32,000 bases of DNA from Candidatus Kuenenia stuttgartensis (GCF_900232105.1 NZ_LT934425.1:4020001-4052000); one strand, 5' to 3'; positions 1 through 25,940 are shown, counted from the first letter of the stretch. Numbers and translations are program-made. Notes: generated by a model from the letters alone, not told the origin.

Positions 1-845
1 CTGTCCAGTTCATCAGCGGAGTATTGTGAAGGATTAAAATCTTTACGGGTAGCCACTGCCGGTTCCTTTACAAAACCGTCCTGAATAGCCTTCGCTAATG
101 AATATTCAAACACGACATTTTTAAACTTAATAGGCCCTCCGCTTCGTTCTATTTGGGGTGTCGCTGTAAGTTCCAATCCTAAAATAGGGTTTAATTCATT
201 AATAACCTGCATGCCTCTGGCTGCCCGGTAGTGATGTGATTCGTCCATCAGCAAAACCAGGCCATCGAGGTTTGAAAGGTAATTGAAATAAGAATCGCCT
301 AAATATTCTGAAAGCCTTTTTACGCGTGGAAGCTTGCCGCCCTTCGTTTCGGCATTTATCTTGGAGATGTTAAAAATGTTGATATGAATATCAGTTATGA
401 ACATTTTTGTCTGGCGAATTTCATTATAATTATCGCCGGTAATAATACGGGGTTGGTTATGAACAAACTCCCCAATGCCCTGAAATACGTATTTTGGGCA
501 ATTCGGATTGGAAAAGTCCTCAATGAGCTTATTATAAATGGTAATATTCGGCGCTAGTACGAAATAGTGCTTTATGCCCTTTGAAAGATATAAATAAGCG
601 ACAAATGCCCCCATTAAGCGCGTCTTTCCAACACCAGTGGCTAAAGCGAAACAGAGAGAAGGGAAGTTTCTTTCAAAGTCAGCACAAGCAGGATAGGCGC
701 TTTTGACTATCTCCAGTGCCGCGAATAAATCGCCATTTTTCTGAAGGGTCAATTTATCCGTCAGCTCTGCCAGTATATTCAGGCTGTCTGCCTGCGGCAA
801 GCGAAGGCTTAAGCGATTCTTGATGGTATTTGCTATGCGATTCAT
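1..845 (-). CDS. res: Type III restriction enzyme Res subunit (DExH helicase-type). Only the N-terminal ~281 codons are present; the gene runs off the window start.
   Basis: Absent from the ORF track because there is no stop in the window. My translation from the ATG at 845-843 gives MNRIANTIKNRLSLRLPQADSLNILAEL...CFALATGVGKTRLMGAFVAY (helicase motif I / Walker A)...LVLLMDESHHY (motif II DExH). An AAGGA Shine-Dalgarno overlaps the upstream toxin stop. The gene lies downstream of a beta-class Mod gene. Confidence 0.75.
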   Translation of the reverse strand, partial: MNRIANTIKNRLSLRLPQADSLNILAELTDKLTLQKNGDLFAALEIVKSAYPACADFERNFPSLCFALATGVGKTRLMGAFVAYLYLSKGIKHYFVLAPNITIYNKLIEDFSNPNCPKYVFQGIGEFVHNQPRIITGDNYNEIRQTKMFITDIHINIFNISKINAETKGGKLPRVKRLSEYLGDSYFNYLSNLDGLVLLMDESHHYRAARGMQVINELNPILGLELTATPQIERSGGPIKFKNVVFEYSLAKAIQDGFVKEPAVATRKDFNPSQYSADELD

Positions 846-854
846 TTTTTGTCC

Positions 855-1169
855 TTAGGCAATGCTATTATCAAAAATATCTTCTTTCAGTAAACGGCTT
901 CCATGCAGTACCGTAACGATCATTACTTTATCTTTTGCTTCATCATACCGGTAAATTATCCGATAATTGCCCATAATCAATTCCCGATACGGCGTATTTG
1001 GAAATTCCGGTAAAAAACGTCCCGCATTGGGGAATAATTGCAATCTTTCTGTGGATTTAAAGATATTTTGGATAGTATATTGTGCGTATAAAAGGGAATC
1101 TCTTGCTATATAGTCATAAATACCTTCTGAATCTGATATGGCTCTTTCAGACCAGATTACTGTTGCCAT
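855..1169 (-). CDS. Type II toxin-antitoxin system toxin, RelE/ParE family
   Basis: 104 aa. The start MATVIWSERAISD..IYDYIA and the end ..YRIIYRYDEAKDKVMIVTVLHGSR are typical of ParE/RelE plasmid-stabilisation toxins. It overlaps the upstream small ORF by 13 nt. Confidence 0.8.
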   Translation of the reverse strand: MATVIWSERAISDSEGIYDYIARDSLLYAQYTIQNIFKSTERLQLFPNAGRFLPEFPNTPYRELIMGNYRIIYRYDEAKDKVMIVTVLHGSRLLKEDIFDNSIA

Positions 1170-1345
1170 TTCTTCGATAACCTTTCTATCGCTTCTTCAT
1201 GGGAAAATGTTCGCCCTTCGGCTATATCTTTTTCACCCATCTCAATTTTTTGAAGCATGTATATACGATACATAACGTCTTCCACCTCTACCTTTTCGGG
1301 TAACTCTTTTATCAGTTCTTCCAATTTTGATTTAATAATCTGCAT
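1157..1345 (-). CDS. Putative antitoxin partner of the RelE/ParE toxin
   Basis: 62-aa ORF immediately upstream of the toxin and overlapping it. The C-terminal pattern ..KIEMGEKDIAEGRTFSHEEAIERLSKKW resembles small antitoxin/addiction-module components. The assignment rests mainly on position and size. Confidence 0.6.
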   Translation of the reverse strand: MQIIKSKLEELIKELPEKVEVEDVMYRIYMLQKIEMGEKDIAEGRTFSHEEAIERLSKKWQQ

Positions 1346-1435
1346 TCTGTAACTCCCCTATTTTTATTTAAAAAAGTAACTATTGACCACTTGCACATCA
1401 CGTCGCTATAGGCTAATCTTGCGATAGTCTGCTCT

Positions 1436-1451
1436 TATCACCGTAGTGATA
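1436..1451. promoter_or_regulatory. Candidate operator: a 16-bp palindrome upstream of the antitoxin-toxin-res unit
   Basis: tatcaccgtagtgata has perfect TATCAC/GTGATA half-sites with a 4-nt centre. It lies about 90 nt upstream of the antitoxin ATG (1345), in the 199-nt gap after mod. Confidence 0.3.
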
Positions 1452-1544
1452 GGAACACCTTTGGCTCATAATGTAACCCCTTCAATATGAGATATGATAA
1501 AATTGTCCGGCAGGAATAATTTCAGAGCAACTACCAATGCCGGA

Positions 1545-3326
1545 TTATTTCTCACGTGCTTTTTCCTCTGCAAAGAGAGACCGTTGAACTATTTTTTTCT
1601 TTGTGCGTCCCTTACTTCTTTTCTTTTGAGGCGAAATAGCGGTAGGATTTGTTTCCTGAGATTCAATTTTCTCCTCATCCGCTTCAACTGGTAAATTGAC
1701 AATATTTAAACTATAATCCTCTTTCCCAAACTCGCACCTGCCAAGCAACATCTTGGGAATCTTTTTTATGGTGATATTAGCGTAACGATTTTCGCAAGCT
1801 TCCTGAAAAGATTTACAACAAATCAGAAGGCTTTCGTCCGGTTTCATTTCTTCGTGAATCTTATCCAGAGACTGTACCGTAACAAACTGTGTGGTGATAA
1901 AAATATAATCCTTTTCAGTGGAACGGCCTTGCTTCCAGTAAATATGCTCATCCGGGCAGTGTCTAAAACCTTCATGCTTTGCCATAGCTGCGGCGAGCAT
2001 ATCGGCATTGTAACGTTCGTCAATAATCCAGTTGCCATGTTTATCTTTTTTCAGCAAACTTGGGGCTAAGTAGTAATATTTGAAACCACCGCCGCCCTGC
2101 CAGTTCACAGCTTTTGATATGCCACCTTGATCCGTGCCGTCAACTACCTTTTTCAATCGCGGAAGGCAGTGGGTATGGCAATGCTCGCCAAGTTCAATGC
2201 CTATCCACCTGCGCCACATCTTATGGGCAACAGCAGCGGTTGTGCCTGAGCCGAGGAAGGAGTCCAGAACCCAGTCACCGGGGTTAGTGGCGATGTGAAT
2301 GATTCTTTTTAGGAGTCTTTCAGGTTTTGGTGTTTCAAAAGTGTCCTCAATACCAAAAAGGGCATTACATTCCTTTTTCGCTTCTTGGTTATGACCAACT
2401 TCCGAATTCGGCCACCATGTCCAAGCAGCAATACCTTCACTTTCAGAAAGGTATGTCTTTTTTCTTGGAACAGAATCACCATCTTTTCCGAACCAAATTC
2501 TACCTTCAGACAATAGCGTTTGGTAAACAGACTCAATATTACGCCAACAAGACCCGGGTCTTGGTTTATATTTTTTCCCATAAGGAGTAACAATTTCATA
2601 CATCTGATTAGGTCTAAACCCTTTTGCCATAAAATCGGCTGATATCCATGGCCCCTTGGGGTCGTTATCCGGATTTTTGTACCTGCTGAGTTGGTCTTCA
2701 GTTTGTTCAAGAATATTCAATTTTTGTTTAAATAAAGATATGTTTTTTGAAAAAACGAGTATATGGTCATGCCCTGCGCCAATTGTTGCCCTCATATCTG
2801 GTTGAATTCTCTTTTGCCACACAACATTAGCAACAAAATTGCTCCTGCCAAATATCTCATCACAGAGCACCTTCAAATAATGGCATTCATTATCGTCAAT
2901 TGTTATCCATAGAGTCCCGTCAGGGCGTAACAGCCTATGCAATATCTCAATTCTCGGCTTCATCAGGCTCAGCCATATTGAATGCTCAAGACCGTCATCG
3001 TAATGCTCAAAAGCGCTACCAGTGTTATAGGGCGGGTCAATACAAGCGCACTTTATCTCTTCTGCAAAATCCTGTTCAAGGGCTTTCAGCGCAAGGAGAT
3101 TATCGCCGTGGATGAGCATATTACCCACCCCTGAATCCCCTCCCATGAGGGGACTTTTATACTTCCCTCTCGAGATGAGGTTGGGGGTATTTTTATTCCC
3201 CTCTTGAGAGAAGCGAGGGGTGTGTCCATAAGACTTCTCAGGGTCTTCAATTAATATGCGCGGCTCCAGCTTTGGCTGGTTTTCCTTGCCTATCCAGGTG
3301 AGTTCGAGTTTTTGGTTTTTGGTCAT
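1545..3326 (-). CDS. mod: Beta-class N6-adenine/N4-cytosine DNA methyltransferase, type III Mod-like
   Basis: 593 aa. Motif IV IDPPYNTG lies N-terminal and motif I DSFLGSGTTAAVAHKM lies C-terminal, the beta-class order with a central variable region. The N-terminal KLELTWIGKENQ and NMLIHGDNLLALKAL are typical of Mod/N4-N6 MTases. A Res-like helicase follows downstream. Confidence 0.85.
   Translation of the reverse strand: MTKNQKLELTWIGKENQPKLEPRILIEDPEKSYGHTPRFSQEGNKNTPNLISRGKYKSPLMGGDSGVGNMLIHGDNLLALKALEQDFAEEIKCACIDPPYNTGSAFEHYDDGLEHSIWLSLMKPRIEILHRLLRPDGTLWITIDDNECHYLKVLCDEIFGRSNFVANVVWQKRIQPDMRATIGAGHDHILVFSKNISLFKQKLNILEQTEDQLSRYKNPDNDPKGPWISADFMAKGFRPNQMYEIVTPYGKKYKPRPGSCWRNIESVYQTLLSEGRIWFGKDGDSVPRKKTYLSESEGIAAWTWWPNSEVGHNQEAKKECNALFGIEDTFETPKPERLLKRIIHIATNPGDWVLDSFLGSGTTAAVAHKMWRRWIGIELGEHCHTHCLPRLKKVVDGTDQGGISKAVNWQGGGGFKYYYLAPSLLKKDKHGNWIIDERYNADMLAAAMAKHEGFRHCPDEHIYWKQGRSTEKDYIFITTQFVTVQSLDKIHEEMKPDESLLICCKSFQEACENRYANITIKKIPKMLLGRCEFGKEDYSLNIVNLPVEADEEKIESQETNPTAISPQKKRSKGRTKKKIVQRSLFAEEKAREK
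3123..3158 (-). repeat. 36-nt G/C-tract hairpin element, copy 1, in frame inside mod (encodes KSPLMGGDSGVG)
   Basis: acccacccctgaatcccctcccatgaggggactttt matches 5430-5465 at 35 of 36 positions. It contains a cccctc/gagggg stem. Two more similar hairpin-like units follow in 3159-3236. Confidence 0.85.
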
Positions 3327-3436
3327 ACCGAATGCCTTTGCAGTTTCACGCTAAATACTTACTCATTGACAAGCGTGATCTCGGACCCTGTAATTGAGTC
3401 TCTGAATAAATGTACCTGTTCCGTTTATTTCTTTCA

Positions 3437-4768
3437 TTAATCCCAGAGTGAAGACTCTTTAGTATAGTTAGTTAATGAAGAGATGGATTCTTGATGCCCT
3501 TTATTATATTGCGCATTGTATGTATCTATTAAAACTTTGAGACTTAGCATCTCATAGATAACTCTTGCTACATCTGCAAAAGGCACCTCGACATTAAAAT
3601 TACCTTTCTTGATTTTTGCAAAAGGAGTTTCAGTACTTAACTGTTCCGCTTTCGCTCTTAAACAAGTATCCACAATCACCCATCCGTCTTTTTCAAATAT
3701 TTTTAATATTTCAGTAAGATTTATTGTGTAAGTTAAATAAATTCTTCCAATCATTAATGCAGTGATATCTTCTATTGAAAGTGGAAACACTGAGAAAGGG
3801 GCCAAGTTTGCAGAAAAACCACGGCGGTCTAAAGAATTGAAAGAGAAAACAACGTCATTATTTTGTTCCCAACGGTTTTTAACACTTTCATGTCTTGAGT
3901 CAAAATATTCTATGACCTTGTCCATGTCATCTAATTTCTCGAAATCAACGCACTCTAAAATCATATAGTTGCCAATCAATTCGCTAGAACAACACGTTTT
4001 TCTCGCTTTTGCAATAATGTTCTTGGCTATTGCTAAATAATTTTTCAGAGGAACATCACAAGGCAGAATTGTTAGCTTTGTGCCCTCATATTTCGTTATT
4101 CCAGTGTTAAAAAACTCTACTACCTCTTGCAACCTTTCCTTTTGTCTTGTTATCCTTCGTCCCCTTTTCTTTGACGACTTTACTTCTATAAGTTCAATGT
4201 CACCATTATCGTCTATTGTAGTTATATCCCCAGTTCTTAAAAAGTTGCTAATATCATTTATTATCGCCCTCTTTTTTTCATGAAGAATTTCTTTTGAAAA
4301 AACAGATAACTCTGTAATTAATCCCTCGTCAAGGCGAACAGGACCGCTATCCTCTTTGTTTGATAAAGCAGATAAAATCACCCTATTATAGTTTAAACAC
4401 CTCCATGCTATTCCATCAATTATAGTCTTTAATGACTGATTGACTAGAAGGACAGCGCCTATCTGGTTCTGATATGTCCTTATTTGCTTCTCCCTATCTT
4501 CTTTATGTAAACTTGAATCAGCCGCAAGTTTCTCTAACATAATCTTCATGGCATCAATAGCCTTGGTATGTTGCAATAAGTCGCCTAATATGGATAATTG
4601 AAGCTTATAAATAGAGAATTTACTTTTACTCCTTTTTCGGCTTATGAACAAGTAATCCTCAATTATTTCCTTGTAATCTTCTTGTAATGGCATCCATATG
4701 GCATTAATCAGACGGGAATAATCTCGTTTTTTACTACCAGCGGTAACTATTTTTTGTTTAAATTCCAT
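3437..4768 (-). CDS. Hypothetical 443-aa protein with a PD-(D/E)xK-like nuclease motif; orphan, AT-rich
   Basis: Long uninterrupted ORF. The segment TGDITTIDDNGDIELIEVKSSKKRGRR fits the D...(D/E)xK restriction-endonuclease-fold pattern. I recognise no other family. Spot counts of 60-nt lines give about 30% GC here (lines 3481, 4201) against about 47% in mod (line 2101). Confidence 0.6.
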   Translation of the reverse strand: MEFKQKIVTAGSKKRDYSRLINAIWMPLQEDYKEIIEDYLFISRKRSKSKFSIYKLQLSILGDLLQHTKAIDAMKIMLEKLAADSSLHKEDREKQIRTYQNQIGAVLLVNQSLKTIIDGIAWRCLNYNRVILSALSNKEDSGPVRLDEGLITELSVFSKEILHEKKRAIINDISNFLRTGDITTIDDNGDIELIEVKSSKKRGRRITRQKERLQEVVEFFNTGITKYEGTKLTILPCDVPLKNYLAIAKNIIAKARKTCCSSELIGNYMILECVDFEKLDDMDKVIEYFDSRHESVKNRWEQNNDVVFSFNSLDRRGFSANLAPFSVFPLSIEDITALMIGRIYLTYTINLTEILKIFEKDGWVIVDTCLRAKAEQLSTETPFAKIKKGNFNVEVPFADVARVIYEMLSLKVLIDTYNAQYNKGHQESISSLTNYTKESSLWD

Positions 4769-4956
4769 AATACTTATCAGTTTGTTGATTTATTCTGTAA
4801 ATAGGCTCTGTCTTGCAAATATACATTCATCGCCGCAGCAAGCGATTCTGTCAGTTTGATCTCAGTCTGGCATTTCGGACAAGTAATCATTGGCTCTGTT
4901 ATATATATCTCATAGAGAGTGTCGACAAACCGGCTTCCCGACGAGCAACGCAATCC

Positions 4957-5003
4957 GTAGCTGGTTCTCCTTACCTATCCATGTGAGTTCTAATCATTTG
5001 TTG
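4957..5003 (-). pseudogene. Remnant of a second mod 5' end (LELTWIGKENQ) directly after the SNF2 stop
   Basis: 4961-4993 ctggttctccttacctatccatgtgagttctaa aligns with 3276-3308 ctggttttccttgcctatccaggtgagttcgag at about 85% identity. The minus-strand translation QNNK*LELTWIGKENQLRI compares with the Mod start TKNQKLELTWIGKENQPKL. Similarity ends after about 16 codons. Confidence 0.6.
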
Positions 5004-5021
5004 TTCTGTATTATTGGTATT

Positions 5022-7916
5022 TTAAATAAGTTTCCATCTAACGGTAAACAATTCTGCTTTTTCAATCTTTTGTTTTAAGCGTGCCTCTATCTCATCTATC
5101 AATCTTTCCTTCCTGTTATCTACGTCATCCTGTGTCTGATACAAATTTAAACGCATGGTGTTTCGTTTCTTTTCCATTTCCTTTATCTGCCTGTGTGCCG
5201 TTACCTTCTCTTCAAGATTGAGGATTTTTTTGGCTTCTGTCTTTCGGCATTTTATCTCTTTATCCAATTCTTTCAATTCAATTTCCATGCTGCTTTTCAC
5301 ATCTTCTGCCCATCTGTCTAATTTTTCCATCTCTGTATCGAAGAAACCTGCATTACGTACAGCATTCATTTGCAGGATTTCGGCTTGCTGTTTTTGGGCT
5401 ATTTGATTTATGAGATTTTTAACATGAGAACCCACCCCTGAATCCCCTCCCAAGAGGGGACTTTTTGATGCGGGAAGGGAAAATAGCCTTTTGCATTGCT
5501 CAATATCCAATTCTGTACCTTCATCTGTCACGCTACATAACAAAATTTGATCTTCAGTTTCAAACGAATTAATTGTTAAGTTAATTACAGATAACCAGCC
5601 CGACTTTGCTATAAGGGACTCTAAAATATTTATTTTCTTGATAGAGTCTGAGTAATTAAATGCTAACTCCTGAACTACTAATGATAAAGACTTTGTTTTT
5701 TCGATAATACGCTGAGCCAAAGGATGCCCAACTCTATAAATGTTTACGTCGTCAATATTCTTTCCCAGTTTGTAGGGGCCAGGATGTATCTTTTCGTCAA
5801 CAAAAGGGTTTTCACGTAAAATAAAAGAATGCTCGTCTATAGCGAAATCAGCGTAAGGTTCAAGGTAGTGTTTAGTAATTTCCCATAACCAATATTCATA
5901 CTTGGACAAATATTCTTTACTCTCCTGTAAATTAACGCGTAATTTTTCATGTACCTCCTCATCGAAATTTTCTAACAAATTATTTCTGGCGTCTTTCATA
6001 CGGTCTTCAATCTGTTCTTCCAGTTCCTTTTGTAACTGGTCAAATAAGGACTGTATTTCTCCCGAAGTTCTGCAATGCTGGTAAATCTGTGCAATCCGTT
6101 TTTCAAAATTAACACCTGATTCAATACTACCCAATACTTCATCGCTTGCCCCGAAAATGCCGTCAAAAAGCTTGAATTTTTCTTTCAATAACTGATAAAC
6201 CCTCTGGTCTGCGGCATTACTCTTATTTAGGAAATTTACGACAACCACATCAAACTTTTGCCCATACCGGTGGCATCGCCCGATTCTTTGTTCGATACGT
6301 TGAGGATTCCAGGGTAAGTCATAATTTACTACCAGAGAGCAAAATTGCAGGTTAATACCTTCTGCGGCGGCTTCTGTGGCTATCAGGATGACTGCCTCAT
6401 CTCTGAAATAATCTACTATTGCAGCCCGCTTATCGGCACTTTTTGAGCCTGTGATTCTGTCTGTGCCAAGATGCCTCTCGATCCATTTTTTATAGATTTC
6501 TTTGGATTTCTGATCGTTGTTCGAGCCGTTAAATAAAACTATCCTGTCCTTGTGCTCAGTATTTTCTAAGATGCTATTCAGATATTCTTGTGTTCTTGTA
6601 GATTCGGTAAATATGATGGCTTTTTTATTACCACCCAGACGTTCTATTTCAGCAAAACCTTTTTTCAGGGCGGTCAGGAGAACCTCTCCCTTTGAATTTC
6701 GGGTAATAGACCTGGCAAGATATTGAAATCCCTTCAGGTCGTTGATTTCCTTTTTGATGTTTTTGATTTCCTCTGGAGTGTAAAGTTCTTCCTTTGTTTC
6801 AGTAACGGGTTGATTTTCTTCTTCAGCATCCTCCCATTCATCCTTAATTTCATCATAAGATTCAAAATCCTGAGACACTATCTGCTCAATGTCTTCCTGT
6901 CGCCCCTTGGTAGTTACGATATTTTCAAGTTTTATTGCAAGGGCGTCTAATGTCCCTGAAATAGCAAAGGTTGACGATGCCAATAATTTCCTCAAAATTA
7001 ACGTCATGAGTTGTCTTTGACCTGGCGGAAGTGCAAATAAATTTTCCCTTTGTAAATAGGCTGAAACCAGGTCATAAAGCCTTTGTTCATCAGGAGACGG
7101 GACAAACTCTTGCGTTATTGCCATTCTATTGGTGTATTTTACATATTCTAATACCTGCCTGCGGAGCGTCCTTATACAAATGGGTTTTAGTCTTTCTTTA
7201 AGATTATGGAAATCATTTTCATTCGCTAATCTGGCAAACTGATTTTTATAACTCTTTAAATCACCAAAGGTATAATCATCAATGATACTGACTAAACCAT
7301 AGAGTTCTAACAAAGAATTTTGGAGCGGCGTTGCGGTAAGCAGCATTTTTGGAGCGTGGGCTACGGCATTTTTGACGGCAGTGGCAATTTTATTTGACGG
7401 CTTATAAACGTTTCTTAATCTATGTGCTTCATCGATGACCACTAAGTCCCAAGGGATATTTTTGATATAAACATCTTTAGCCCTTGCAAAATGGTATGAG
7501 CAAATGATTATTTCGTTCTGGTTGAAGGGGTTTAAGTTTCCTTTTTTAATTTCCTGATTAAAAGAAGGCGTTTCCAGTATAAGTGATGAAAGGTAGAATT
7601 TATCCAGTAATTCCTGATTCCATTGCTTACGAAGGTTTGATGGCACTATAACCAGAATTTTCCGTTTTCTTTCAGCCCATTTTTGAGATATAACCAGACC
7701 GGCCTCGATGGTTTTCCCCAGACCTACCTCGTCCGCCAGTATAGCACCCTTTGAAAGCGGGGAATGGAAGGCAAATAAAGCAGCCTCGACCTGATGCGGA
7801 TTTAAGTCTACCTGGGCGTCTAAAAGAGAAGAAGCCAGCTTTTGCAAACTATCTGAAGAACTGCGTTTTGTAAGCTCAAAAGCAAAATATTTTGCGTGGT
7901 AAGGCGTTATTTGCAT
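5022..7916 (-). CDS. SNF2-family (RAD54-like) helicase/ATPase, 964 aa, with a C-terminal coiled-coil
   Basis: Motifs found: DLNPHQVEAALFA, motif I ILADEVGLGKT, motif II VVIDEAHRLRN, helicase-C AAEGINLQ...NYDLPWNPQRIEQRIGRCHRYGQK. The tail is K/E-rich and coiled-coil-like. Confidence 0.9.
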   Translation of the reverse strand: MQITPYHAKYFAFELTKRSSSDSLQKLASSLLDAQVDLNPHQVEAALFAFHSPLSKGAILADEVGLGKTIEAGLVISQKWAERKRKILVIVPSNLRKQWNQELLDKFYLSSLILETPSFNQEIKKGNLNPFNQNEIIICSYHFARAKDVYIKNIPWDLVVIDEAHRLRNVYKPSNKIATAVKNAVAHAPKMLLTATPLQNSLLELYGLVSIIDDYTFGDLKSYKNQFARLANENDFHNLKERLKPICIRTLRRQVLEYVKYTNRMAITQEFVPSPDEQRLYDLVSAYLQRENLFALPPGQRQLMTLILRKLLASSTFAISGTLDALAIKLENIVTTKGRQEDIEQIVSQDFESYDEIKDEWEDAEEENQPVTETKEELYTPEEIKNIKKEINDLKGFQYLARSITRNSKGEVLLTALKKGFAEIERLGGNKKAIIFTESTRTQEYLNSILENTEHKDRIVLFNGSNNDQKSKEIYKKWIERHLGTDRITGSKSADKRAAIVDYFRDEAVILIATEAAAEGINLQFCSLVVNYDLPWNPQRIEQRIGRCHRYGQKFDVVVVNFLNKSNAADQRVYQLLKEKFKLFDGIFGASDEVLGSIESGVNFEKRIAQIYQHCRTSGEIQSLFDQLQKELEEQIEDRMKDARNNLLENFDEEVHEKLRVNLQESKEYLSKYEYWLWEITKHYLEPYADFAIDEHSFILRENPFVDEKIHPGPYKLGKNIDDVNIYRVGHPLAQRIIEKTKSLSLVVQELAFNYSDSIKKINILESLIAKSGWLSVINLTINSFETEDQILLCSVTDEGTELDIEQCKRLFSLPASKSPLLGGDSGVGSHVKNLINQIAQKQQAEILQMNAVRNAGFFDTEMEKLDRWAEDVKSSMEIELKELDKEIKCRKTEAKKILNLEEKVTAHRQIKEMEKKRNTMRLNLYQTQDDVDNRKERLIDEIEARLKQKIEKAELFTVRWKLI
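5430..5465 (-). repeat. 36-nt G/C-tract hairpin element, copy 2, in frame inside the SNF2 gene (encodes KSPLLGGDSGVG)
   Basis: acccacccctgaatcccctcccaagaggggactttt has the same orientation and reading frame as copy 1. Confidence 0.85.
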
Positions 7917-8323
7917 TAATTATAGCATTCAGGGAATTATTTACTCTTTAAACAAAAGACCCAAATTACCTATTTTCTTTAGGTTTGTGTGTGGAGTATA
8001 AATCATTCAAAAACTTATTTCAATACCCGTTCATAATTCATACTTTCTGAGTGGCTTTGCGTGGGAAAAGAAAAAACTTTCTATTACAACTCGTTTGGGT
8101 TAGTGGATTTTAGGAGTACGGGGGATTGTTTAATTTATACTCAAGATGCTCATAAAATGTGAATTTTAAATTGATGATATGGTGGCACGGACAAACCTTG
8201 TTTGTCCGTGTTGAACTGGTACGACATTGTCTATAAATCACCAATGGTGAACCTCTTGAGTATCACTATTTCTACAAAAGTACAAAGGAATATACTCTTA
8301 AGTGCCTATGGTAACCCTTTTTG

Positions 8324-8851
8324 TTATGGCGCTGCTAATTCCTCTGCCTTTGGCAGATCCTTAATGTTTTTTAAGCCGAAATGTTCAAGAAATTTCTTTG
8401 TAGTGCCGTATAATAAAGGGTGTCCAAGAGATTCGTCCCTCCCAACTACCTTAACAAGGTCTTTTTCCATTAGTAGTCTTATGATTTGACCTGATTGAAC
8501 GCCGCGGATAGACTCAACATCAGCCCGCAATACAGGCTGTTTGTATGCAATGATTGCAAGTGTTTCCAGTGAGGCCGAAGAAAGTTTTGTTTCAGCCGAT
8601 TTTTTACGCAGTTTCGATATCCATTCGTGATACTCAGGCAGTGTGTAGAGTTGGAAGCCGCCTGCAATCTCTTCAATCTGGAATGCCCTCCCCTGCTGAT
8701 TATATTCTTGTTGCAGTAAAGTAATGGCTTCCTTTATGAGGGCGGCGTCAACATCATCGATAATGTTACATATTTTTTTGCTGGAAAGAGGTTCTTCCGC
8801 AGAAAACAGCAACGCTTCAACAATGGGTTTTATTTCTTCAATGTTTTTCAT
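8324..8851 (-). CDS. scpB: Segregation and condensation protein B
   Basis: 175 aa. The start ..IVEALLFSAEEPLS and the later ETLAIIAYKQPVLRADVESIRGV..LMEKDLV are typical ScpB winged-helix repeats. Confidence 0.85.
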   Translation of the reverse strand: MKNIEEIKPIVEALLFSAEEPLSSKKICNIIDDVDAALIKEAITLLQQEYNQQGRAFQIEEIAGGFQLYTLPEYHEWISKLRKKSAETKLSSASLETLAIIAYKQPVLRADVESIRGVQSGQIIRLLMEKDLVKVVGRDESLGHPLLYGTTKKFLEHFGLKNIKDLPKAEELAAP

Positions 8852-12444: not shown

Positions 12445-14173
12445 TGTTAATCCTAAATCCTGCAAACGATTTTCGCAATGCGAAAATCAGTATTTTCCAC
12501 TACCAAGATTGGCAAAAAGCGATAACAGATATCCGTTTTTTAGCAATTGTGGTAGCGCTATTGTACTACTTTAAACAAAAAGACATGGGAAATTGTCGGA
12601 AACGTGCTCTCTGATGCAATGAAAATCAAGATAGGGATGTACTGTCTCCATCTGCGGTATACTTACCACTCTCAAAAGACTAAAAAAACGAAATACAACG
12701 TCGGTTTTCTACTGAAAAACTACATCCAGTGACATGCGTTCCCACTTTTCCCATTCCTCCTGATGGAGAAATTTCTCCGGCAATTTTAATGTCATCTGCC
12801 GGCTTCTCTCCACCAGTTTCCCTGCCACACGGATTAACCACAGTCTCATCGTCTTTACTTCCCACTTTTGTATCACTCCACCACTGAGCAATCCCATCCA
12901 CTTCAAAAGATTATACGCTAACACCGCACACTGAAATAGCGCAGCATTGGCCAAAAATTCACCCGTACGTATGTGCCCCGCATTCATCTGTCCTTTACTC
13001 TCTTCTATCAAAGTCTCGCAGGTAGCCCTCTTTCCATAACAACGATGCGCTTCCATCGGACTTAACCGCTCCGTTGTAACGTAACAAAAATACTCATACA
13101 CGGACACTTCTACTAATTTCTTTTCTCTTTTGACCAATTGCCGCACTGCCACAAAACGTCTCGCACGATCCCACCCTGCACATCGATACCAAAATTCAGC
13201 CTGTTCCCATCCTGGCTCCCCTTTCACCTCATTCCATTTCTGCCCTTCAAGCAATCCTTCCAGATTCTTCAGCTTTACCTTAATCAGATATCCCGCCAAT
13301 ATTGACTCAAGGTATTCAAGTAATTCTCCGGTAAAAAAACCGCTGTCTCCTCGAAATACCACCCTTACCCCCTTATTCATGTACGCCATACATTCCTTCA
13401 TGAACTCTACTACTCCGTTACTCGTGTAGGCGCTTCCACAGCGGAACCAACTATGTAATACCTCCTTTGTTTCTGCAATAAATGCCATTAAGGGATGATA
13501 CGCCTTCTGCCCCTTCTTGTGCGGATTATATCCTACCTCTGCACCCTCCTGTTTCCCATATACACCATCTACGGTAGAATCAACATCTATCCATACTTCG
13601 CAAAGAGCACTCCTGAGTTTATGGCCTGATCTCACCGCACGCTTCCATATCTTTCCCCTAAACCGGTGGATCACCCCCGTCAGTTCCACTATATCTCCCT
13701 GACTCGCCAGCTTCATAATACGTCCTATCGTAGTATCTACAGGTACCTCTTTCCACCCGGACATCTTCTTCAATACCTCATCTGTACACACCTTCATCAC
13801 CTCTACCATCGATGTCGCCCCTGCTATCAACCCTATCACTACCATTTGTACCGCATCGACAAACTGATACCGGGCATTTGCTCCACGATCCTTATGGACC
13901 GCTTCATGGACTCTCTCCCGGAACATCAGCTTACCCATAAAATTCAATACCGGTAAAAGCCCTGCATGTACCGTTAAGCCTTTCCCGCTCATCTCTGCCT
14001 TGATTTTCGGTTGTCTTTTGCTGTATTTTTTTGCTATATTCTTCATCGAAATGGTGAATCTCCTTTCAGGTGTTTTTTGTTATCAATATACCGCCGAATA
14101 CCTTGGAAATCCTACCATTTCAATCCTATTCCTGCAACAAGGCTTTGCCTTGTTTGCAGGATTTAGGTTAATA
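12445..14173 (-). mobile_element. IS1380-family insertion sequence (~1.73 kb)
   Basis: The terminal inverted repeats are ttaatcctaaatcctgcaaac (12447-12467) and gtttgcaggatttaggttaa (14152-14171), with a 16-nt perfect core and a 1-nt indel. ATAAA is a possible 5-bp target duplication (12440-12444 and 14174-14178). The element encloses a single transposase ORF. Confidence 0.7.
12709..14046 (-). CDS. IS1380-family DDE transposase
   Basis: 445 aa. N-terminal GKGLTVHAGLLPVLNF, then WIDVDSTVDGVYGKQEGAEVGYNPHKKGQKAYHPL, FRGDSGFF, YGKRATCETLIEESK and LAYNLLKW match the IS1380 family pattern. Confidence 0.85.
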   Translation of the reverse strand: MKNIAKKYSKRQPKIKAEMSGKGLTVHAGLLPVLNFMGKLMFRERVHEAVHKDRGANARYQFVDAVQMVVIGLIAGATSMVEVMKVCTDEVLKKMSGWKEVPVDTTIGRIMKLASQGDIVELTGVIHRFRGKIWKRAVRSGHKLRSALCEVWIDVDSTVDGVYGKQEGAEVGYNPHKKGQKAYHPLMAFIAETKEVLHSWFRCGSAYTSNGVVEFMKECMAYMNKGVRVVFRGDSGFFTGELLEYLESILAGYLIKVKLKNLEGLLEGQKWNEVKGEPGWEQAEFWYRCAGWDRARRFVAVRQLVKREKKLVEVSVYEYFCYVTTERLSPMEAHRCYGKRATCETLIEESKGQMNAGHIRTGEFLANAALFQCAVLAYNLLKWMGLLSGGVIQKWEVKTMRLWLIRVAGKLVERSRQMTLKLPEKFLHQEEWEKWERMSLDVVFQ

Positions 14174-14286: not shown

Positions 14287-14678
14287 GGTTCAAGTTTGCA
14301 ACTCAATGTCATTAAGTTAAGAATTATTGCAACACTTTGGTTTTAAAAAAAACGTATTACCGATAAGCTCCGTAGGAGCAACCTGTTTGTAGTAGATAGG
14401 GATACCATAACAGATATTAGCTCCGTCAGGAGCGGCCTGTCTTCCTGTCAATCATATACAGGCCGCTCCTACGGAGCTATTTACCTGTTGAATTTTATTG
14501 TGCTACAAACAGACCGCCCCTAAAGGGGCTACATTGTTTTTTATATCCCCTTGAATTTTTCAAATAACTAAGGTGTTAAGAATTATTTTATTAAAAACAA
14601 CCCCCTTTTTCCCCCTTTATTAAGGGGACTTTTCTGGCAGGTTGCTTAACTTAATGACATTGGTTTGCAACTTGAACC
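14287..14678. repeat. Nested palindromic MITE-like structure: outer inverted repeats enclosing a family-A copy
   Basis: The outer arms are ggttcaagtttgcaactcaatgtcattaagttaa (14287-14320) and ttaacttaatgacattggtttgcaacttgaacc (14646-14678). The inner family-A arms are gaattattgcaacactttggtttt (14321-14344) and caaataactaaggtgttaagaattatt (~14561-14587). The core holds direct and inverted copies of agctccgt(c)aggagcggcctgt, forming a ~20-bp hairpin at 14419-14479. Confidence 0.65.
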
Positions 14679-14887
14679 CCACGTTTTATATTGTTACTAC
14701 CTGCTGGTATGGGGGATTTAGCCATTAAATACCTGGCGCGGCCTTTGGCCGCAACCAAATTCGAAATACGAAATAAATTCAAATGACAAAAAACCCAATG
14801 CTACAAACTTTACGTAAACCTCATCTAATCAATGTCTTACGATTATGCATTTTGAAAAACTAGCATAAAAAACAAGAAGTTGATCAT

Positions 14888-15844
14888 TTAATCCGTAGCT
14901 ATTTTTTTTGTGATGGAAGCGCTTTCAACGAGATTGACAAGCCACGGCCTTAATCTTTCTCTGTATTTTTTTTCCCGTACTAATTCTTCCAACTCTTTTT
15001 TTACCGTATCAAACTTTTTGTCGCTTCCGGTTTTTCTACCGGTAATTTTTACAATGTGATAGCCGTAATTTGTATTTATAATACCGCTTAACTCACCCGG
15101 CTTGAGATGCGCAACTGATTTTCCAATATCGTCTTCCGGACTAAATGGCAACATCTTCCCATCTCTTGAAGCAGAAGCGCGGTCAATCGACTGGGCCTTT
15201 GCCATTTTCGTAATATCCGCGCCTAAACGCAGTTTCTCAAGAGCTTCTTCCGCCTCTCTTTTCGTTTTCAAAACTATCTGCTGCGCCTCGATTTTTTCTC
15301 CATAAATACTTTTATATGCCTCTTGCAAATCCTCTTCAGATACTGAAATCGTCTTCATTACAACCTTTTCAGCACGTAATTCAATCTCTGCCTCTTTTAC
15401 TAATCTCTTCGTTAATTTATCTTTAAACTCTTTAAGACTTGCACCGATCTTTTCCAGTTCCTTATCAAGATCCGCTTCGTTTTCTATTTTGTACGTTTGC
15501 AGTAAAGCGTTCACTTCGCGCTGCACAAGGGTGTTTATCTTGTTTTCTACTTCCTTAGTGGTAAGTGATATTCCATGTTTTCTTGCCTCCTGGTTTATAA
15601 GCGTTCTTCTGATAAGAACATCAAGGGCTTCATTTCCATAAGTACTCAATAAAAGTTCATATAGCTCATTGCTGGTAATCTTTTGTCCATTGACAATAGC
15701 AACAACATCCTTGTCTTCTTTTGATTCTTTACTTACAAGTACTATACTGGTTTCAGAGTTAGCTGACACACTCTGATTGTGGATACTAAAACTTCCAAAA
15801 GAAAACATTGCCGCCATAGGTAAGAAGAGGTATTTTCTATTCAT
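14888..15844 (-). CDS. Secreted peptidyl-prolyl cis-trans isomerase, parvulin type (SurA/PrsA-like)
   Basis: N-terminal signal-like segment and a SurA-N-like helical region. The C-terminal parvulin signature reads ..GELSGIINTNYGYHIVKITGRK. Confidence 0.8.
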   Translation of the reverse strand: MNRKYLFLPMAAMFSFGSFSIHNQSVSANSETSIVLVSKESKEDKDVVAIVNGQKITSNELYELLLSTYGNEALDVLIRRTLINQEARKHGISLTTKEVENKINTLVQREVNALLQTYKIENEADLDKELEKIGASLKEFKDKLTKRLVKEAEIELRAEKVVMKTISVSEEDLQEAYKSIYGEKIEAQQIVLKTKREAEEALEKLRLGADITKMAKAQSIDRASASRDGKMLPFSPEDDIGKSVAHLKPGELSGIINTNYGYHIVKITGRKTGSDKKFDTVKKELEELVREKKYRERLRPWLVNLVESASITKKIATD

Positions 15845-20686: not shown

Positions 20687-22446
20687 TTACAAGCGAAGCA
20701 TTTGAAGTGAAAGAAAAGGTCTTGCCGCAAAATTTCTGAGCGTCTTTGCAATATTTGGTACATTGAGAAAATGAAACAGCCCAACCACAAGGTTCTTCAA
20801 AGAAGCCATTGCCCTTGGGGCATTTTGTGTGCGTATTTGAGAATGGTCTTCACGGAAGGAGGTATCACGCACATAATGAAGTCCATTTTCTATTGACCAG
20901 TGTCCGCGGGAAAACTTAAGAATGGTTTTGGGACTTGCTTTTTGTTGTGTCAGGCTGGTAATACCGTAAACAATTTCCTCGGTCTTTTTGCCGGTCTTGA
21001 CTTTTGTAAATATTCTATGAATGCAAAATACCTGCTTAACGTAGGGGAAATCAAGTTATTCGTTTAATTCGGTGCTGGTCCAAATCCTGCGGATTTCAAT
21101 GCGGCCATGGCCTTTTTCAATTGTTTCGTGCTGAGGGGGGGAAAAGAACTGAGATTCAGTTCCTTGATGGCTTGTTTTATGGTTTTTTGATTATCTTTCA
21201 CCGTGAATATATATTCTGCCTTTTTGTCTTCTACCAGATAACGGGCGGTTTCCTTTTGCGCATGTAAGGCATCGAAAGTAACGACACGGTCTTTTATGTC
21301 TAAATCATCAAACAATACCGGAACCATCGGTATTTCGTTTGTTTTGCGGTCTACCTGAGTTTGTGCGAGAACTATACCCTGTTTATGAAGAAAAGCGGCA
21401 AGCAAATGTACCTGTTTGCCGTCAGGCTGTCTTGCACCGCAAAGGGTTTTCCCGTCAACCGCAATGGGCAGGCTTTTATCACCTACAGATTGAAACCAAC
21501 GCGAGAGGACTTTATCAACTGCTTCTGCATCCACCTGCTGTAAGAAACGCCTGATGGTAGGTTCACTCGGTGGTTCGTATCGTTTCGTTTTTGCATTGTA
21601 ACGGCAGGAGAGACGTTTGAGCATATTTTGCGGACAACGCTTTGCCCACTCTGCAATGGCGGCAAAGCTCCAGGCATTGCAGATGATAGCACAGATAGAA
21701 ATTGCCAGGATAGAACGTTTCCTGTGGCGAACGCCTCTGGGCATGCGATGTTCAGGGATTTGCTGCAATAATTCGTCAAGAAATTCCGCATCTTTTAAAG
21801 ATAATTTCATAGGCTTTGTCTCCTTTCTTAATTGTATGGTAAGATTAAGGTTGTTAAGTTGTTTTTGGACTTGTGCTTTCAATGAGCGAACAAAGACCAT
21901 CTTTGGCTTATTGTGCAGAAGATAGCCTTGTGATGATCTGGCAAAACCGGTTGAATGTCCTAAAAAAATCCATCCTGCGGCCTTATAGCAGACGCCTTTA
22001 AAAAAACGAGGATCGACAAAGGTCTCCACAAGCCAGATTGGATGCCCATAGACCTTAGTCCAGTCTTGTGATAAGCGCTTAAGGTTAAGAGAAAGAATAC
22101 GGGAGGCAAGGTTTGGTACGTGTATCTGAGGAAGGATCAGGAAACGTGAGTTGTTTGCTATGAGTTTCAGTCGTTGCGATTTTAAAAATGGCGGCCATCC
22201 AATCCACTTATCGCGAACGGTACATTTTAATGCTGCGGCAGCCCAGCCGATCAAGGCAAGCCATTGTCCCTGTGATTCCGCTACGTAGCGAATTGATTCT
22301 CCTACGAGAGAATGAAATCCAAGGTAATGATGCTGGCGCATCAGTGTGTCCCAATTTGCCTGGTCGTTTTGTGAAACAGGACGAACGGTAATTGAATGAA
22401 GTAGTTCGTTGTGTGTGTTATCGATTGGTGTTGTATGCTGGTTCAT
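20687..22446 (-). pseudogene. DUF4338 domain fused to an ISAs1-family transposase, inactivated by a frameshift and a nonsense codon
   Basis: ORF 21064-22446 carries an N-terminal DUF4338-like half (HHYLGF, DKWIGW, LIANNSRFLILP, NLASRILS, LSQDW, LVETFVD, CYKAAGW). Its second half is ISAs1-like (PRGVRHRKRSILAISICAII...AVDGKTLCGA...FDALHAQKETA). The C-terminus continues in another frame as ..EKGHGRIEIRRIW..*..GHWSIENGLHYVRDTSFREDHSQIR, down to the stop at 20687. The frameshift is at the G7/C7 run 21135-21141 and the in-frame TAA is at 21054-21056. Confidence 0.75.
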
Positions 22447-22917: not shown

Positions 22918-24930
22918 TTAGCCTCCAACCCCCACTCGTCGCCAGATACTTTGGACAACGTGACAAAGCATCCTTTTTAAACCATACGTCTTTCTCGTAG
23001 TCAGCGACCCCGAAGTGTTGCTCTATAACAGAGAAAAGTCAAACATCATGCTTTAGCACACGCCTTAAGAAATTCTCTTTCGAATGAGAGTAACCCCATT
23101 TTAAAGAATCGGTGAACAGGGAAACGCTTGTTGTCTGTTCTCCATTTTCTTGAGAACTTGAAACATCTCAGTCTCATGCGTACCCAACAGTCTAATGAGC
23201 GATATACCTTTTGTACATTGCCCAGCCGAAAATAGTTGACATGCCCACGAATTACAGGGTTTAATGTATCAACAATGGCTTGCAGATTGACGCCCTGTGT
23301 ACGTCTGGTGATGTCTCTGATGTTGTTCCTTCGGCAGGCTCAGGACAGGCTCTTGAGTTTGTTCAGTGATTTCGTGCTTATACCCTTATACTTGCCCTTG
23401 AAATCGTATCCGAGAAACCTGAAACCTCTTTCGAAGTTGGTGAGCTTGGTTTTATCCTCGCTCAGCTTCATTCCAAGTTTCCCTGCAATGATTTCTTTGA
23501 CATAGCTGAGGGCGGCTGGGAGTTCATCTTTTGTTTTAGTCATGACAACGAAATCATCGGCGTATCGGACAAACTTATATCCAGCCTTTTCAAGTTCCTT
23601 GTCGATGATGTCACCGATAAGGTTTGCAAGCAAAGGGGAAATGACGCCTCCTTGCGGAGTGCCTTTGTTTGTCTCGTGCACGATGCCGTCCTCCATGACC
23701 CCTGCCTTGAGCATGTTCTCAATACTGTTCAAAACCCATCCATCAGCAATTTTCTCACGTAAGGAGTCCATAATAAGCTTATGGGGTATGGTGTCATAGA
23801 ATGCCATTATATCGGCATCAAGGACGCTGGTATACCCTTCCTGCTTATACTGTTCAAGCCGTTTGATAGCATCGTGACAGCATCTGTCAGGGCGAAATCC
23901 AAAGCTGTTATCTGAGAATCCTTTCTCAAATATTGGCTCTATGATTTGCCTGAACGCCTGCTGTACAATCCTGTCCTTAACAATGGGAATGCCAAGAGGT
24001 CTCTTGTCATGCCTGCCTTTGGGGATGTATACCCGCAGGACAGGCGCAGGGTTGTATATGGCAGTCTTGAGTTCCTGATGGATACTCATGATATTCACAT
24101 CAAGATTGGACTCAAATTGCTTAATACTTACCCTGTCAAGACCAGCTTTGCCTTTATTCTTCTTTACGTGTTTGAAAGCAGCATAAAGGTTTTTCAGACT
24201 AAACACCTTGTCTCTTAATGAATGATACTTAAGCATCTCTCGATATATTCCTTTCGATTGATTACGGATAATAGACTTGTCAATCGTGTTTCCTGGGTAC
24301 GGATTCTCCCAAACATAGGCAAAAACAAGAGAGGCTCTTGTTACTGCTTACCTACGCAAAAGAGTTTCTTTTCTCATTGAACGTATTCAATCTGCCACTT
24401 TCATCAATTCCACTACGGTTATGCCCCTTTCATTTCCGATTCACACCGGAAACTATTATGAGCAATGCTGACGACTTCAAAGATAGACTTGTGAGAGAAG
24501 CTTGTCTATCACCATCTCATACAGCTCGGACTTCGGAATTTCCTTATACCTTGCTGTTAGGGAATTTTGCCCAAGGCGTAAGTCCTCCCCCGGTCATATG
24601 GATTACCCCTTTTCCCTTCGTGATGTATGTTCAAACGCATTAACCAGAGATGGTTTTACTTAATCTGTTTATCCATCTCCAACAAAGGACATTGTCAGTG
24701 CTTCGCTGAGAAATGGCAGTTGGCACGGAATAACACGCCACACTCATACACCCCAAAAGGTCGTCTGTACCTCGTAACTCCGTCATACCCCTCACGGGTA
24801 TATGCTATCTTTCTACGCATACGGATTGCTCCATTGTGTGCGCATAGGCACAAACTTCTCTACGAGGATTAGGCTCGCAGAGGTGGTATTTTCAACCACT
24901 CAGGTATTCCATACTTCAAGGCACACACAC
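22903..24930 (-). mobile_element. Group II intron, ~2.0 kb; boundaries tentative
   Basis: It encloses an RT/maturase ORF. About 690 nt of non-coding, structured-looking sequence lies upstream of the ORF (24237-24930), and a possible 5' GUGUG sits at 24930-24926 on the minus strand. About 140 nt downstream of the ORF ends in a 10-bp hairpin plus ..CCUAC at 22903. I could not identify a convincing domain V by eye. Confidence 0.55.
23046..24236 (-). pseudogene. Group II intron reverse transcriptase/maturase without an endonuclease domain, interrupted by one in-frame TGA
   Basis: RT motifs found: GLDRVSIKQFE, RVYIPKGRHDKRPLGIPIVKDRIVQQA, FGFRPDRCCHDA, DADIMAFYDTIPH, GTPQGGVISPLLANL, RYADDFVV. 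After the TGA at 23340-23342 the same frame continues with the maturase X-domain pattern ..IRDITRRTQGVNLQAIVDTLNPVIRGHVNYFRLG.., to the stop at 23046-23048. Confidence 0.85.
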
Positions 24931-25061: not shown

Positions 25062-25940
25062 ATGGAAACAACCATAACATATCGGAGGCGGTCAGTCTCC
25101 CCGGAAGATATCGAGACCATCAGGCGGATCATTGAGGCGCATCCTGGCAAAAGCAGACGCTTCATTTCTTAGGAAGTTTGCAGGGAATGGGACTGGCGGC
25201 AGTCGAATGGTGTTCTTAAAGATATGGTCTGCCGAAGCCTGCTTCTTGTATTGGAGTCAAAAGGCCTCATTAAGCTGCCACACAGGAAATTCACTCCTGC
25301 CAACCCGCTTGCAGAACGAAAGAAACCATCCGGAGTAACAGTCGACAACACGTCCATTTATGGTTCTCTTGCCGATCTGTTTCCCATCAACCTTGAGCAG
25401 GTTCGCAGAACTCCCTTTGAGAAGATATTCAATGGTCTTGTAAGCGAATACCATTATCTTGGCTATACCCAACCCATTGGAGAGCACCTCAAATATATGG
25501 CCTTTTCCGGTGGCCGCCCCGTTGCATGTCTGGCATGGGGCTCTGCGCCATGGTATATCGGTGCGAGAGATCGTTTTATTGGCTGGAGTAAAAAGGCCAG
25601 AGAAAGGAATCTTCACCTGATCGCCAATAATCTCCGTTTTTTGATCCTGCCATGGGTACAGGTATCATGCTTAGCCTCATATCTGCTGGCATCTAACCGT
25701 CGGCGTCTGTCACAAGATTGGCAAGATCTATACAACCATCCGGTTTATCTACTTGAAACCTTTGTGGACACAGAACGATATCATGGTACCTGCTACAAGG
25801 CAGATAACTGGATATGTGTGGGCCAGACAACTGGTCTGGGCAAACTTAGTAAATCGCGCGAACCGCTACTTTCCAAAAAGGCCGTTTATGTCTATCCCCT
25901 GACTAAACATTTTCTCCGGGAGTTATGCTATGACGCCTGA
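25062..25940 (+). pseudogene. DUF4338-domain protein with a disrupted N-terminus; the intact ORF runs 25224-25940
   Basis: The core contains YHYLGY, DRFIGW, LIANNLRFLILPW, LASYLLA, LSQDW, LLETFVD and CYKADNW. Upstream in the same frame, ..RRRSVSPEDIETIRRIIEAHPGKSRRFIS*EVCREWDWRQSNGVLKD looks like the native N-terminus, but it contains a TAG at 25170-25172. The only upstream ATG (25061) is in a different frame. Confidence 0.7.

Follow-up and report, generated by a model that had tools for sequence, protein, structure and literature searches.

Gene content of the locus

We analyzed a 32,000-nucleotide stretch of the genome of Candidatus Kuenenia stuttgartensis (NZ_LT934425.1:4020001-4052000; "the window" refers to this whole stretch). 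We found that the first 7,916 nucleotides of the window contain the two genes of a type III restriction-modification (R-M) system, mod and res, in a block that is led by a gene for a SNF2-family ATPase. We refer to these three genes as the triad. There are six open reading frames (ORFs) between positions 1 and 7916, and every one is on the minus strand, as was recognized in a first-pass annotation made from the sequence of the window. Loci and contigs that were fetched for comparison are designated by L-numbers.

The mod gene (positions 1545-3326, minus strand) encodes a protein of 593 amino acids whose sole Pfam match is PF01555 (E = 1e-45). Mod matches the PADLOC model MTase_III (PDLC03636) over its full length (6.6e-189), and its solved relatives are Mod from Helicobacter pylori (6k0w) and Mod of EcoP15I (4zcf). 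DPPY (motif IV, at residue 97) precedes FLGSG (motif I, FxGxG, at residue 357). This is the motif order of the beta-class N6/N4 DNA methyltransferases, the class to which the methylase had been assigned at first sight, and it is the order found in type III Mod proteins.

The window contains the first 281 codons of res (positions 1-845, minus strand; start codon at 845-843), and the gene then runs off the left end. The full protein, encoded on contig L001 (12482-15157), is 891 amino acids. The first-pass annotation had remarked that this helicase looks like Res, and the profile searches bear that out. Res matches PF04851 (3e-21), and the full protein has both PF04851 and PF00271. Among the PADLOC matches listed, it matched only REase_III and PbeA models; the match to REase_III (PDLC03648) was 5e-60 with the fragment in the window and 5.5e-188 with the full protein. 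The Walker A, DExH and motif VI sequences and the C-terminal PDF..E.K are at least 90% conserved in 35 homologues. That is, Res combines a superfamily 2 (SF2) helicase-like ATPase with a C-terminal PD-(D/E)xK endonuclease, as is characteristic of type III Res proteins. It is only distantly related to Res of EcoP15I (E = 4.6e-6).

The leading gene (positions 5022-7916, minus strand) encodes the SNF2-family ATPase, 964 amino acids long as originally read. It matches PF00176 (7e-34) and PF00271 (1e-22), and motifs I, II and VI are intact (GLGKT, DEAH and QRIGRCHRYGQ, respectively). In PADLOC, two DrmD models match: PDLC02619, at 1.9e-211, and PDLC02621, which aligns over residues 36-950. PADLOC scores were 703 bits for DrmD compared to 178 bits for HmaA. 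The best family match was to DISARM_DrmD_b of NCBIfam, with 708 bits, below the curated cut-off of 950; the match spans residues 29-695 only and leaves the C-terminal 270 residues unmatched.

The architecture of the SNF2 protein is like that of RapA and DrmD: an ATPase core (approximately residues 35-600) is joined by a helical linker to a beta-rich domain (689-825), after which come a long coiled-coil hairpin (830-947) and a terminal strand. An AlphaFold2 model is confident for residues 670-964, where it has the beta-rich domain, a helical hairpin of ~115 residues, and the terminal strand. RapA is the best solved relative in both sequence and fold, in an alignment of ~1,000 columns. The C-terminal 294 residues match 886 protein clusters (E ≤ 1e-10), always at the C-terminal end of the protein. 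The family is very large, and its conservation is unusually high, with full-length identity across phyla of 67-74%. No conserved nuclease motif was found among the invariant positions of SNF2, and a Pfam search detected no recognizable nuclease or effector domain.

Between the SNF2 gene and mod is a gene (positions 3437-4768, minus strand) for a protein of 443 amino acids that had no match in Pfam, PADLOC or NCBIfam, and that we call the orphan. The family of the orphan is rare: only 38 clusters of it were found in 5.8 billion proteins. A PD-(D/E)xK-like motif (D181, E195-x-K197, Q209) is conserved in an alignment of 34 sequences. The AlphaFold2 model has a mean predicted local distance difference test score (pLDDT) of 82.7 and a predicted template modeling score of 0.84, and a search with it found no match in the Protein Data Bank below E = 0.4. 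The orphan weakly matches phrog_14906, a phage family of unknown function.

Between mod and res is a toxin-antitoxin module, as was previously called. The toxin (positions 855-1169, minus strand; 104 amino acids) is of the ParE/RelE family (PF05016 at 2.4e-17; phrog_2455 at 6.5e-21), and its gene ends 9 nucleotides before the start codon of res. It is preceded by an ORF of 62 codons (positions 1157-1345, minus strand) that overlaps the start of the toxin gene by 13 nucleotides, an arrangement typical of ParDE/RelE-type pairs. The product of this ORF is a putative antitoxin; the assignment to a family is tentative, coming from a weak match (2e-4) to phrog_2268, which is annotated as an antitoxin. 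The first-pass annotation had described two unrelated cassettes separating the canonical partners. The cassettes are unrelated, but the toxin-antitoxin pair is the only one between mod and res; the orphan separates the SNF2 gene from mod.

The DNA around the 62-codon ORF (window positions 1109-1377) is 79% identical to a segment of L013 (14047-14311) that holds an ORF of 76 codons. In L013, that ORF is followed by an MNT/HEPN pair and not by ParE. Either the small gene is not specific for ParE or its toxin partner has been swapped.

We found that the island is exactly six genes, located between scpB and msrAB. Its upstream border, drawn in the first reading at 7.9-8.3 kb next to core genes, is a non-coding gap of 407 bp (positions 7917-8323) that has no minus-strand ORF of 50 codons or more and is likely the promoter region. 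Beyond the gap are scpB (positions 8324-8851) and then rnf genes. To determine what follows res, we used an exact-protein look-up that extended the locus in two Brocadiaceae-type assemblies (GCA_021646445.1 and GCA_900232175.1; contigs L001 and L002). On both contigs, res is followed by msrAB, amt (encoding an ammonium transporter) and a gene for a sensor kinase, and there is neither a DUF1998 gene nor a PLD gene after res on the extended contig. The G+C content of the block is 0.34-0.43, compared to 0.40-0.47 for most of the window. Rfam and tRNA scans of the window found no RNA genes.

Conservation of the triad and variability of its gaps

We surveyed the neighborhoods of SNF2 homologues, as had been proposed when the locus was first described, using one genome per species. 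Relatives of SNF2 were found in at least 592 species-representative stretches (600 scanned). Eighty loci were fetched, and their ORFs were searched with Mod from the window and with full-length Res. For 56 loci, 8 kb or more of DNA was available downstream from the SNF2 homologue (53-74% identity across the whole protein), and in 55 of them a type III Mod was encoded downstream on the same strand. Res was detectable with the window-type query in 51 of the 55 Mod-bearing loci. One locus in this set, L066, was counted as lacking res. In four others (L056, L077, L078 and L087), a gene for a Mod-like protein of ~1,000-1,100 amino acids is followed by a gene for a protein of ~1,080-1,160 amino acids.

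Some of the partner genes belong to other type III lineages. A group of weakly scoring loci proved to be a second type III lineage (PDLC03634 and PDLC03647). Loci with methylases of ~1,000-1,100 amino acids and no detected Res were suspected of being a DISARM subgroup; searching three of them with PADLOC (L077, L087 and L061, the last of which has less downstream DNA than the 8-kb criterion) identified a third Mod/Res lineage (PDLC03646 and PDLC03654). That is, the partners of SNF2 span three distinct Mod/Res lineages. Clustering of SNF2 by distance mostly tracks the Mod/Res lineage: for 60 of 70 proteins the nearest neighbor shares that lineage, and there have been several switches.

The genes of the triad are often close together. 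The SNF2-mod gap is less than 150 bp in 19 of 68 loci, frequently with overlapping genes (L030 and L036 are examples of overlapping-gene loci), and mod and res abut or overlap in 37 of 56 loci. The distance between the SNF2 gene and mod reaches 5.9 kb in some loci.

We also did the reciprocal survey, in which 80 metagenome loci were retrieved with Res. All 37 of the loci with at least 8 kb upstream contained Mod, and 32 of the 37 had this SNF2 upstream; one further locus had a divergent SNF2. Co-occurrence was therefore ~98% from the side of SNF2 and ~86-90% from the side of Res, with SNF2 always upstream and on the same strand. Because the SNF2-anchored and Res-anchored surveys agree, accidental adjacency of SNF2 is excluded. 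Unrelated neighbors of SNF2 in close relatives had been named as the outcome that would speak for such accident; the relatives instead keep the SNF2-Mod-Res frame, on one strand, in essentially every locus that is long enough.

Some of the Res-anchored metagenome loci have a gene for an OLD-family ATPase-TOPRIM protein upstream of mod (L106, 362-4065; L170, 3740-5569). In L106, it is followed by a gene for a UvrD-like helicase, making a Gabija-like pair. These genes appear to be cargo, and the contig stops before a SNF2 gene could come into view.

The triad is also present on conjugative IncF plasmids of Salmonella, Escherichia coli, Klebsiella and Raoultella, with a SNF2 that is 44-45% identical to that in the window. 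We examined it on pR18.1595_113k of Salmonella (L098; NZ_CP100694.1) and on pEC316_2 of E. coli (L099; NZ_CP018955.1). In the IncF triads, a small helix-turn-helix (HTH) gene overlaps the start of the SNF2 gene. The Salmonella triad has IS256 and an Abi gene in the SNF2-mod gap, and the triad of pEC316_2 is near the ssb/psiB/psiA leading region. Together with its HTH gene, the pEC316_2 triad occupies approximately positions 29,496-39,248 of NZ_CP018955.1. The hosts of these plasmids are experimentally tractable.

Relatives in which SNF2 is 74-92% identical to that in the window retain the frame and hold different genes in both gaps. In L095 (SNF2 92% identical), the SNF2-mod gap has genes for a ParA-like ATPase, an AlbA_2 protein and a Bro-N protein, and the mod-res gap has an ORF of 79 codons. 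In L096 (80%), Schlafen/AlbA_2 and reverse transcriptase genes are in the first gap and YhcG is in the second. L097 (78%) has a YhcG fragment in the first gap and DUF559 and YhcG in the second. L013 (74%) has a Phd antitoxin, an AlbA_2 protein and the orphan in the first gap, and DUF559 and the MNT/HEPN pair in the second. DNA homology between these four loci and the window ends at the stop codon of the SNF2 gene, at the start codon of mod, and ~10 nucleotides before the start of res.

The GTDB loci contained 115 ORFs in the gaps. Most (107) are co-oriented with the frame, and 55 were singletons on clustering. Recurrent families were those usually seen among embedded defense genes, namely AAA_15, AIPR, RhuM, SLFN/AlbA_2 with HATPase_c_4, YhcG/DUF1016 and OLD, and also GmrSD-like, Ppl, HNH, AAA_13, DUF2130, and M78 with HTH. 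Among ~85 SNF2-led triad loci, the orphan was present in two (the window/L001 and L013) and ParE in one. Judged from these sequence comparisons, the orphan and the ParE pair are variable, exchangeable and mutually unrelated cargo.

Remnants of core genes are present in some of the gaps. In L096, an ORF of 201 codons in the cargo region (14457-15062) is a chimera of a 5' fragment of mod and the last 430 nucleotides of the SNF2 gene (87% identical). This is the footprint expected if triads with different cargo had recombined and the interior had then been deleted. L095 has extra 5' fragments of mod at 5634-5743 and 6786-6881. We considered such remnants as a general footprint of cassette exchange, but they were found in only one of 50 GTDB loci (in a gap of L076), and we therefore regard them as anecdotal.

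Interpretation of the SNF2-Mod-Res frame

Our results show that the triad is a conserved unit of three intact, co-oriented genes. It is mobile, its catalytic motifs are preserved, and it has been inherited as a whole in many phyla and on plasmids, while its cargo turns over. At first reading, two possibilities had been offered: a poorly characterized type III variant assisted by SNF2, or a hybrid resembling DISARM. The synteny surveys favor the variant; the hybrid fails for lack of DUF1998 and PLD genes and because the methylase and helicase are those of a type III system. Based on these results we infer that the locus is most probably a horizontally acquired, three-component type III R-M variant that has a fixed SNF2-Mod-Res frame and exchangeable defense-type cargo in both gaps.

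By analogy to known type III enzymes, Mod would methylate one strand of an asymmetric site, thereby marking host DNA, and a Mod2Res complex would restrict unmodified DNA after ATP-triggered long-range communication. SNF2 may be a non-nucleolytic translocase on double-stranded DNA that works with Mod and Res on incoming DNA. Most likely, it would drive or clear the path for communication between sites, or strip proteins from the DNA. Comparable functions can be suggested by analogy for DrmD of class 1 DISARM, BrxHII of BREX type 3, and ZorD of Zorya, although the role is established in none of these. The cargo genes likely act as independent or back-up defenses; there are precedents in PrrC and TgvAB, which are embedded in type I loci, the latter in Vibrio cholerae.

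Several observations weigh against this interpretation. The partnership between SNF2 and Mod/Res is predicted here from the order of the genes. There are a few Mod-Res loci without SNF2, most clearly L133 (4191-7001), a locus in the Res-anchored set in which ileS is directly upstream of mod in a lineage-1 Mod-Res pair. Thus, at least for a time, a Mod-Res pair of this lineage can do without the motor. Conservation of SNF2 is much higher than that of Mod and Res, of which three lineages are paired with it, and SNF2 may therefore contact DNA or a host factor rather than an R-M enzyme. RapA binds RNA polymerase, and by analogy this offers a possible lead to such a host factor. The AlphaFold2 model of the ATPase core of SNF2 is poor (mean pLDDT of 63). 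Because of this, and because the underlying alignment was shallow (28 sequences, 68-83% identical), our use of the model was limited to the C-terminal region and the comparison with RapA. In the gap upstream of the SNF2 gene, the top promoter-like site (8023-7995, minus strand) matches at 10 of 12 positions, but a scan for promoters and terminators found promoter-like sites to be no more common than in shuffled sequence. Since the scan gave no more sites than chance, operon structure is deduced from the spacing of the genes only. Lastly, the novelty of the triad is relative to the sources covered: it is not named in PADLOC or NCBIfam, and we found no description of it in the open-access literature.

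As to the role of SNF2, the main rival idea assigns it to methylation instead of restriction. The motor would carry Mod along host DNA for quick modification of hemi-methylated or unmethylated asymmetric sites, shielding the host from its own Res, and the two proteins would form a methylase-helicase dyad as proposed for DarB-like proteins. The position of the SNF2 gene directly before mod, often overlapping it, is consistent with this idea. So is the link in mobile elements between SWI2/SNF2 ATPases and adenine methylases, noted in general terms by the Aravind laboratory (PMC5512222), and so is the finding that joint deletion of drmD and drmMI in class 1 DISARM caused loss of protection. However, classical type III Mod methylates without a motor, and a function in methylation leaves the near-constant retention of Res unexplained. 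We consider this idea unlikely.

It is less probable still that SNF2 is an independent single-gene defense or a housekeeping helicase that is beside the type III system by accident or as a loose hitch-hiker. Stand-alone SNF2 defense proteins do exist, for example HmaA of Halomonas (PMC11232893). The far better conservation of SNF2 than of Mod and Res, the repeated switches of partner lineage, and the large distances between the SNF2 gene and mod in some loci would also fit with independence. The co-occurrence from both sides, across many phyla and plasmids and with one order and strand, argues against it, as do the overlapping or abutting genes in 19 of the 68 loci. In addition, SNF2 has no recognizable effector domain of its own, and it persists while cargo turns over.

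We also considered whether all six genes form a fixed system in which the orphan and the ParE pair are functional subunits. The six genes are co-oriented and closely spaced, with ParE ending just before res, and the orphan and the 5' part of mod have been inherited as one block in L013 (82% DNA identity). In contrast, the rarity of the orphan and of ParE among the triad loci, and the other genes that occupy both gaps in relatives with SNF2 78-92% identical, speak against fixed subunits. Homologues of the orphan (29-41% identity) stand alone in six unrelated contexts. The comparative data have largely refuted this explanation, and we give it very little weight.

The weakest alternative is membership in class 1 DISARM, whether as a complete system or as a hybrid of DISARM and type III, with SNF2, the methylase and the helicase corresponding to DrmD, DrmMI and DrmA. 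The gene order and the DrmD matches are suggestive, but drmA, drmB and drmC are absent on the extended contig, which refutes membership. In addition, wherever the downstream methylase and helicase were profiled in the 80 related loci, they were type III Mod and Res, although the models searched directly did not include DrmB or DrmC. We consider this alternative very improbable.

It is also possible, though we hold this quite tentatively, that SNF2-Mod-Res makes up a class of defense system of its own, ancient and widespread, in which the motor alters how targets are found or cut, the gene junctions are slots for cassette exchange, and the orphan is a new single-gene defense nuclease. If so, SNF2 might enable, for example, translocation-triggered or single-site cleavage, or the removal of protective proteins. 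The slots would be the two conserved junctions, SNF2-mod and mod-res, at each of which the 3' end of one gene meets the 5' end of the next.

Relation to known systems and other features of the window

By the usual definition, a type III R-M system consists of two genes, mod and res. The locus in the window shares with classical type III systems (EcoP1I and EcoP15I, Mod2Res) the class of Mod, with full-length type III profile matches and solved Mod relatives, the SF2 motifs and C-terminal PD...ExK nuclease of Res, and the order of mod before res. It differs in that a SNF2 gene of ~960 codons, a conserved third member, leads in nearly all relatives, in having cargo at the gene junctions, and in the great distance between its Res and that of EcoP15I. 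If SNF2 is an obligate third partner in whole lineages of type III systems, then tools that call "RM type III" and a stray "DrmD" miss a component in at least ~590 species genomes and in IncF plasmids. The triad would also be a simple and genetically tractable setting in which to study what a SNF2 motor does in methylation-based defense, a question that also stands for DrmD of DISARM and BrxHII of BREX.

Like the triad, class 1 DISARM (drmD-drmMI-drmA-drmB-drmC) begins with a SNF2 gene whose product is DrmD-like in sequence and architecture; genes for an adenine methylase and an SF2 helicase come next, and both systems tolerate embedded genes (10.1101/2024.01.29.577857). In contrast to DISARM, the triad has no DrmA, no DrmB (DUF1998) and no DrmC (PLD); its helicase matches REase_III and not DrmA. 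Its methylase is of PF01555, whereas DrmMI is defined by PF13659 (10.1101/2021.12.28.474362), and its SNF2 scores below the DrmD_b cut-off.

Hma (helicase, methylase, ATPase; PADLOC) is also a system of three genes that include a SNF2 helicase, a methylase and an ATPase, and 62.7% of Hma systems carry embedded defense genes (10.1101/2024.01.29.577857). It differs from the triad in that HmaB is an m5C (5-methylcytosine) methyltransferase, HmaC is a different ATPase (PMC8565338), and HmaA has a NOV_C domain. We rejected membership of the locus in Hma: the match of SNF2 to HmaA is low, SNF2 has no NOV_C domain, the methylase is of the N6/N4 type, and Mod and Res match neither HmaB nor HmaC among the matches listed.

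Compared to RapA, the SNF2 in the window is without the N-terminal Tudor domains and has a long C-terminal coiled-coil hairpin. BrxHII of BREX type 3 is RapA-like and likewise accompanies a methylation-based defense (PMC12839542); the partners of the SNF2 in the window are instead type III Mod and Res.

A match of the whole block to a named system had been set out at the start as a refuting outcome; PADLOC gave no such match, only the Mod and Res parts and an isolated DrmD-like match. A 2025 review of R-M biology does not mention SNF2. The triad is thus apparently uncharacterized, and it is spread over hundreds of species.

Variable defense genes are likewise nested in other multi-gene restriction loci; PrrC, within EcoprrI, and TgvAB, within a type I locus of V. 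cholerae, are examples. The GmrSD-like, AAA_13/PrrC-like and RhuM families are common to the gaps of the triad and to known R-M loci. Embedded defense genes have been reported in Hma, BREX, DISARM and type I systems (10.1101/2024.01.29.577857). We found no report in the open-access literature of embedding in type III systems, or with SNF2 as the border of a slot. If SNF2 is an obligate partner, the two cargo slots would bring type III systems under "guilt by embedding" as well, with candidates such as the orphan family.

The genes of the triad also contain a repeat. A repeat of ~105 nucleotides with two palindromes (CCCCTC...GAGGGG) is in frame within mod (positions 3121-3225, minus strand; approximately residues 34-68). 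A 36-nucleotide copy of its core, 97% identical, is in frame in a variable loop of SNF2 (positions 5430-5465, minus strand; residues 818-829). The repeat is located in coding loops and specifies peptides such as KSPLMGGDSGVG. Copies are present in SNF2, Mod and Res of Brocadiaceae relatives (L013, L095, L096, L097 and L100), in either orientation and sometimes in tandem, and there was no copy in ~70 kb of flanking or cargo DNA. The repeat appears to be confined to triad genes. It resembles the Rickettsia palindromic elements.

Mobile elements abound in the rest of the window (positions 12709-14046, 21064-22446, 23340-24236, 25224-25940 and 25930-27384). Two encoded proteins have a DruA domain (PF14236): one is fused to a DDE transposase, and the other adjoins an IS66 transposase. 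A reverse transcriptase of 298 amino acids is encoded as well. There is also a DDE_Tnp_1_4 transposase in a region of extreme GC skew, down to -0.44.

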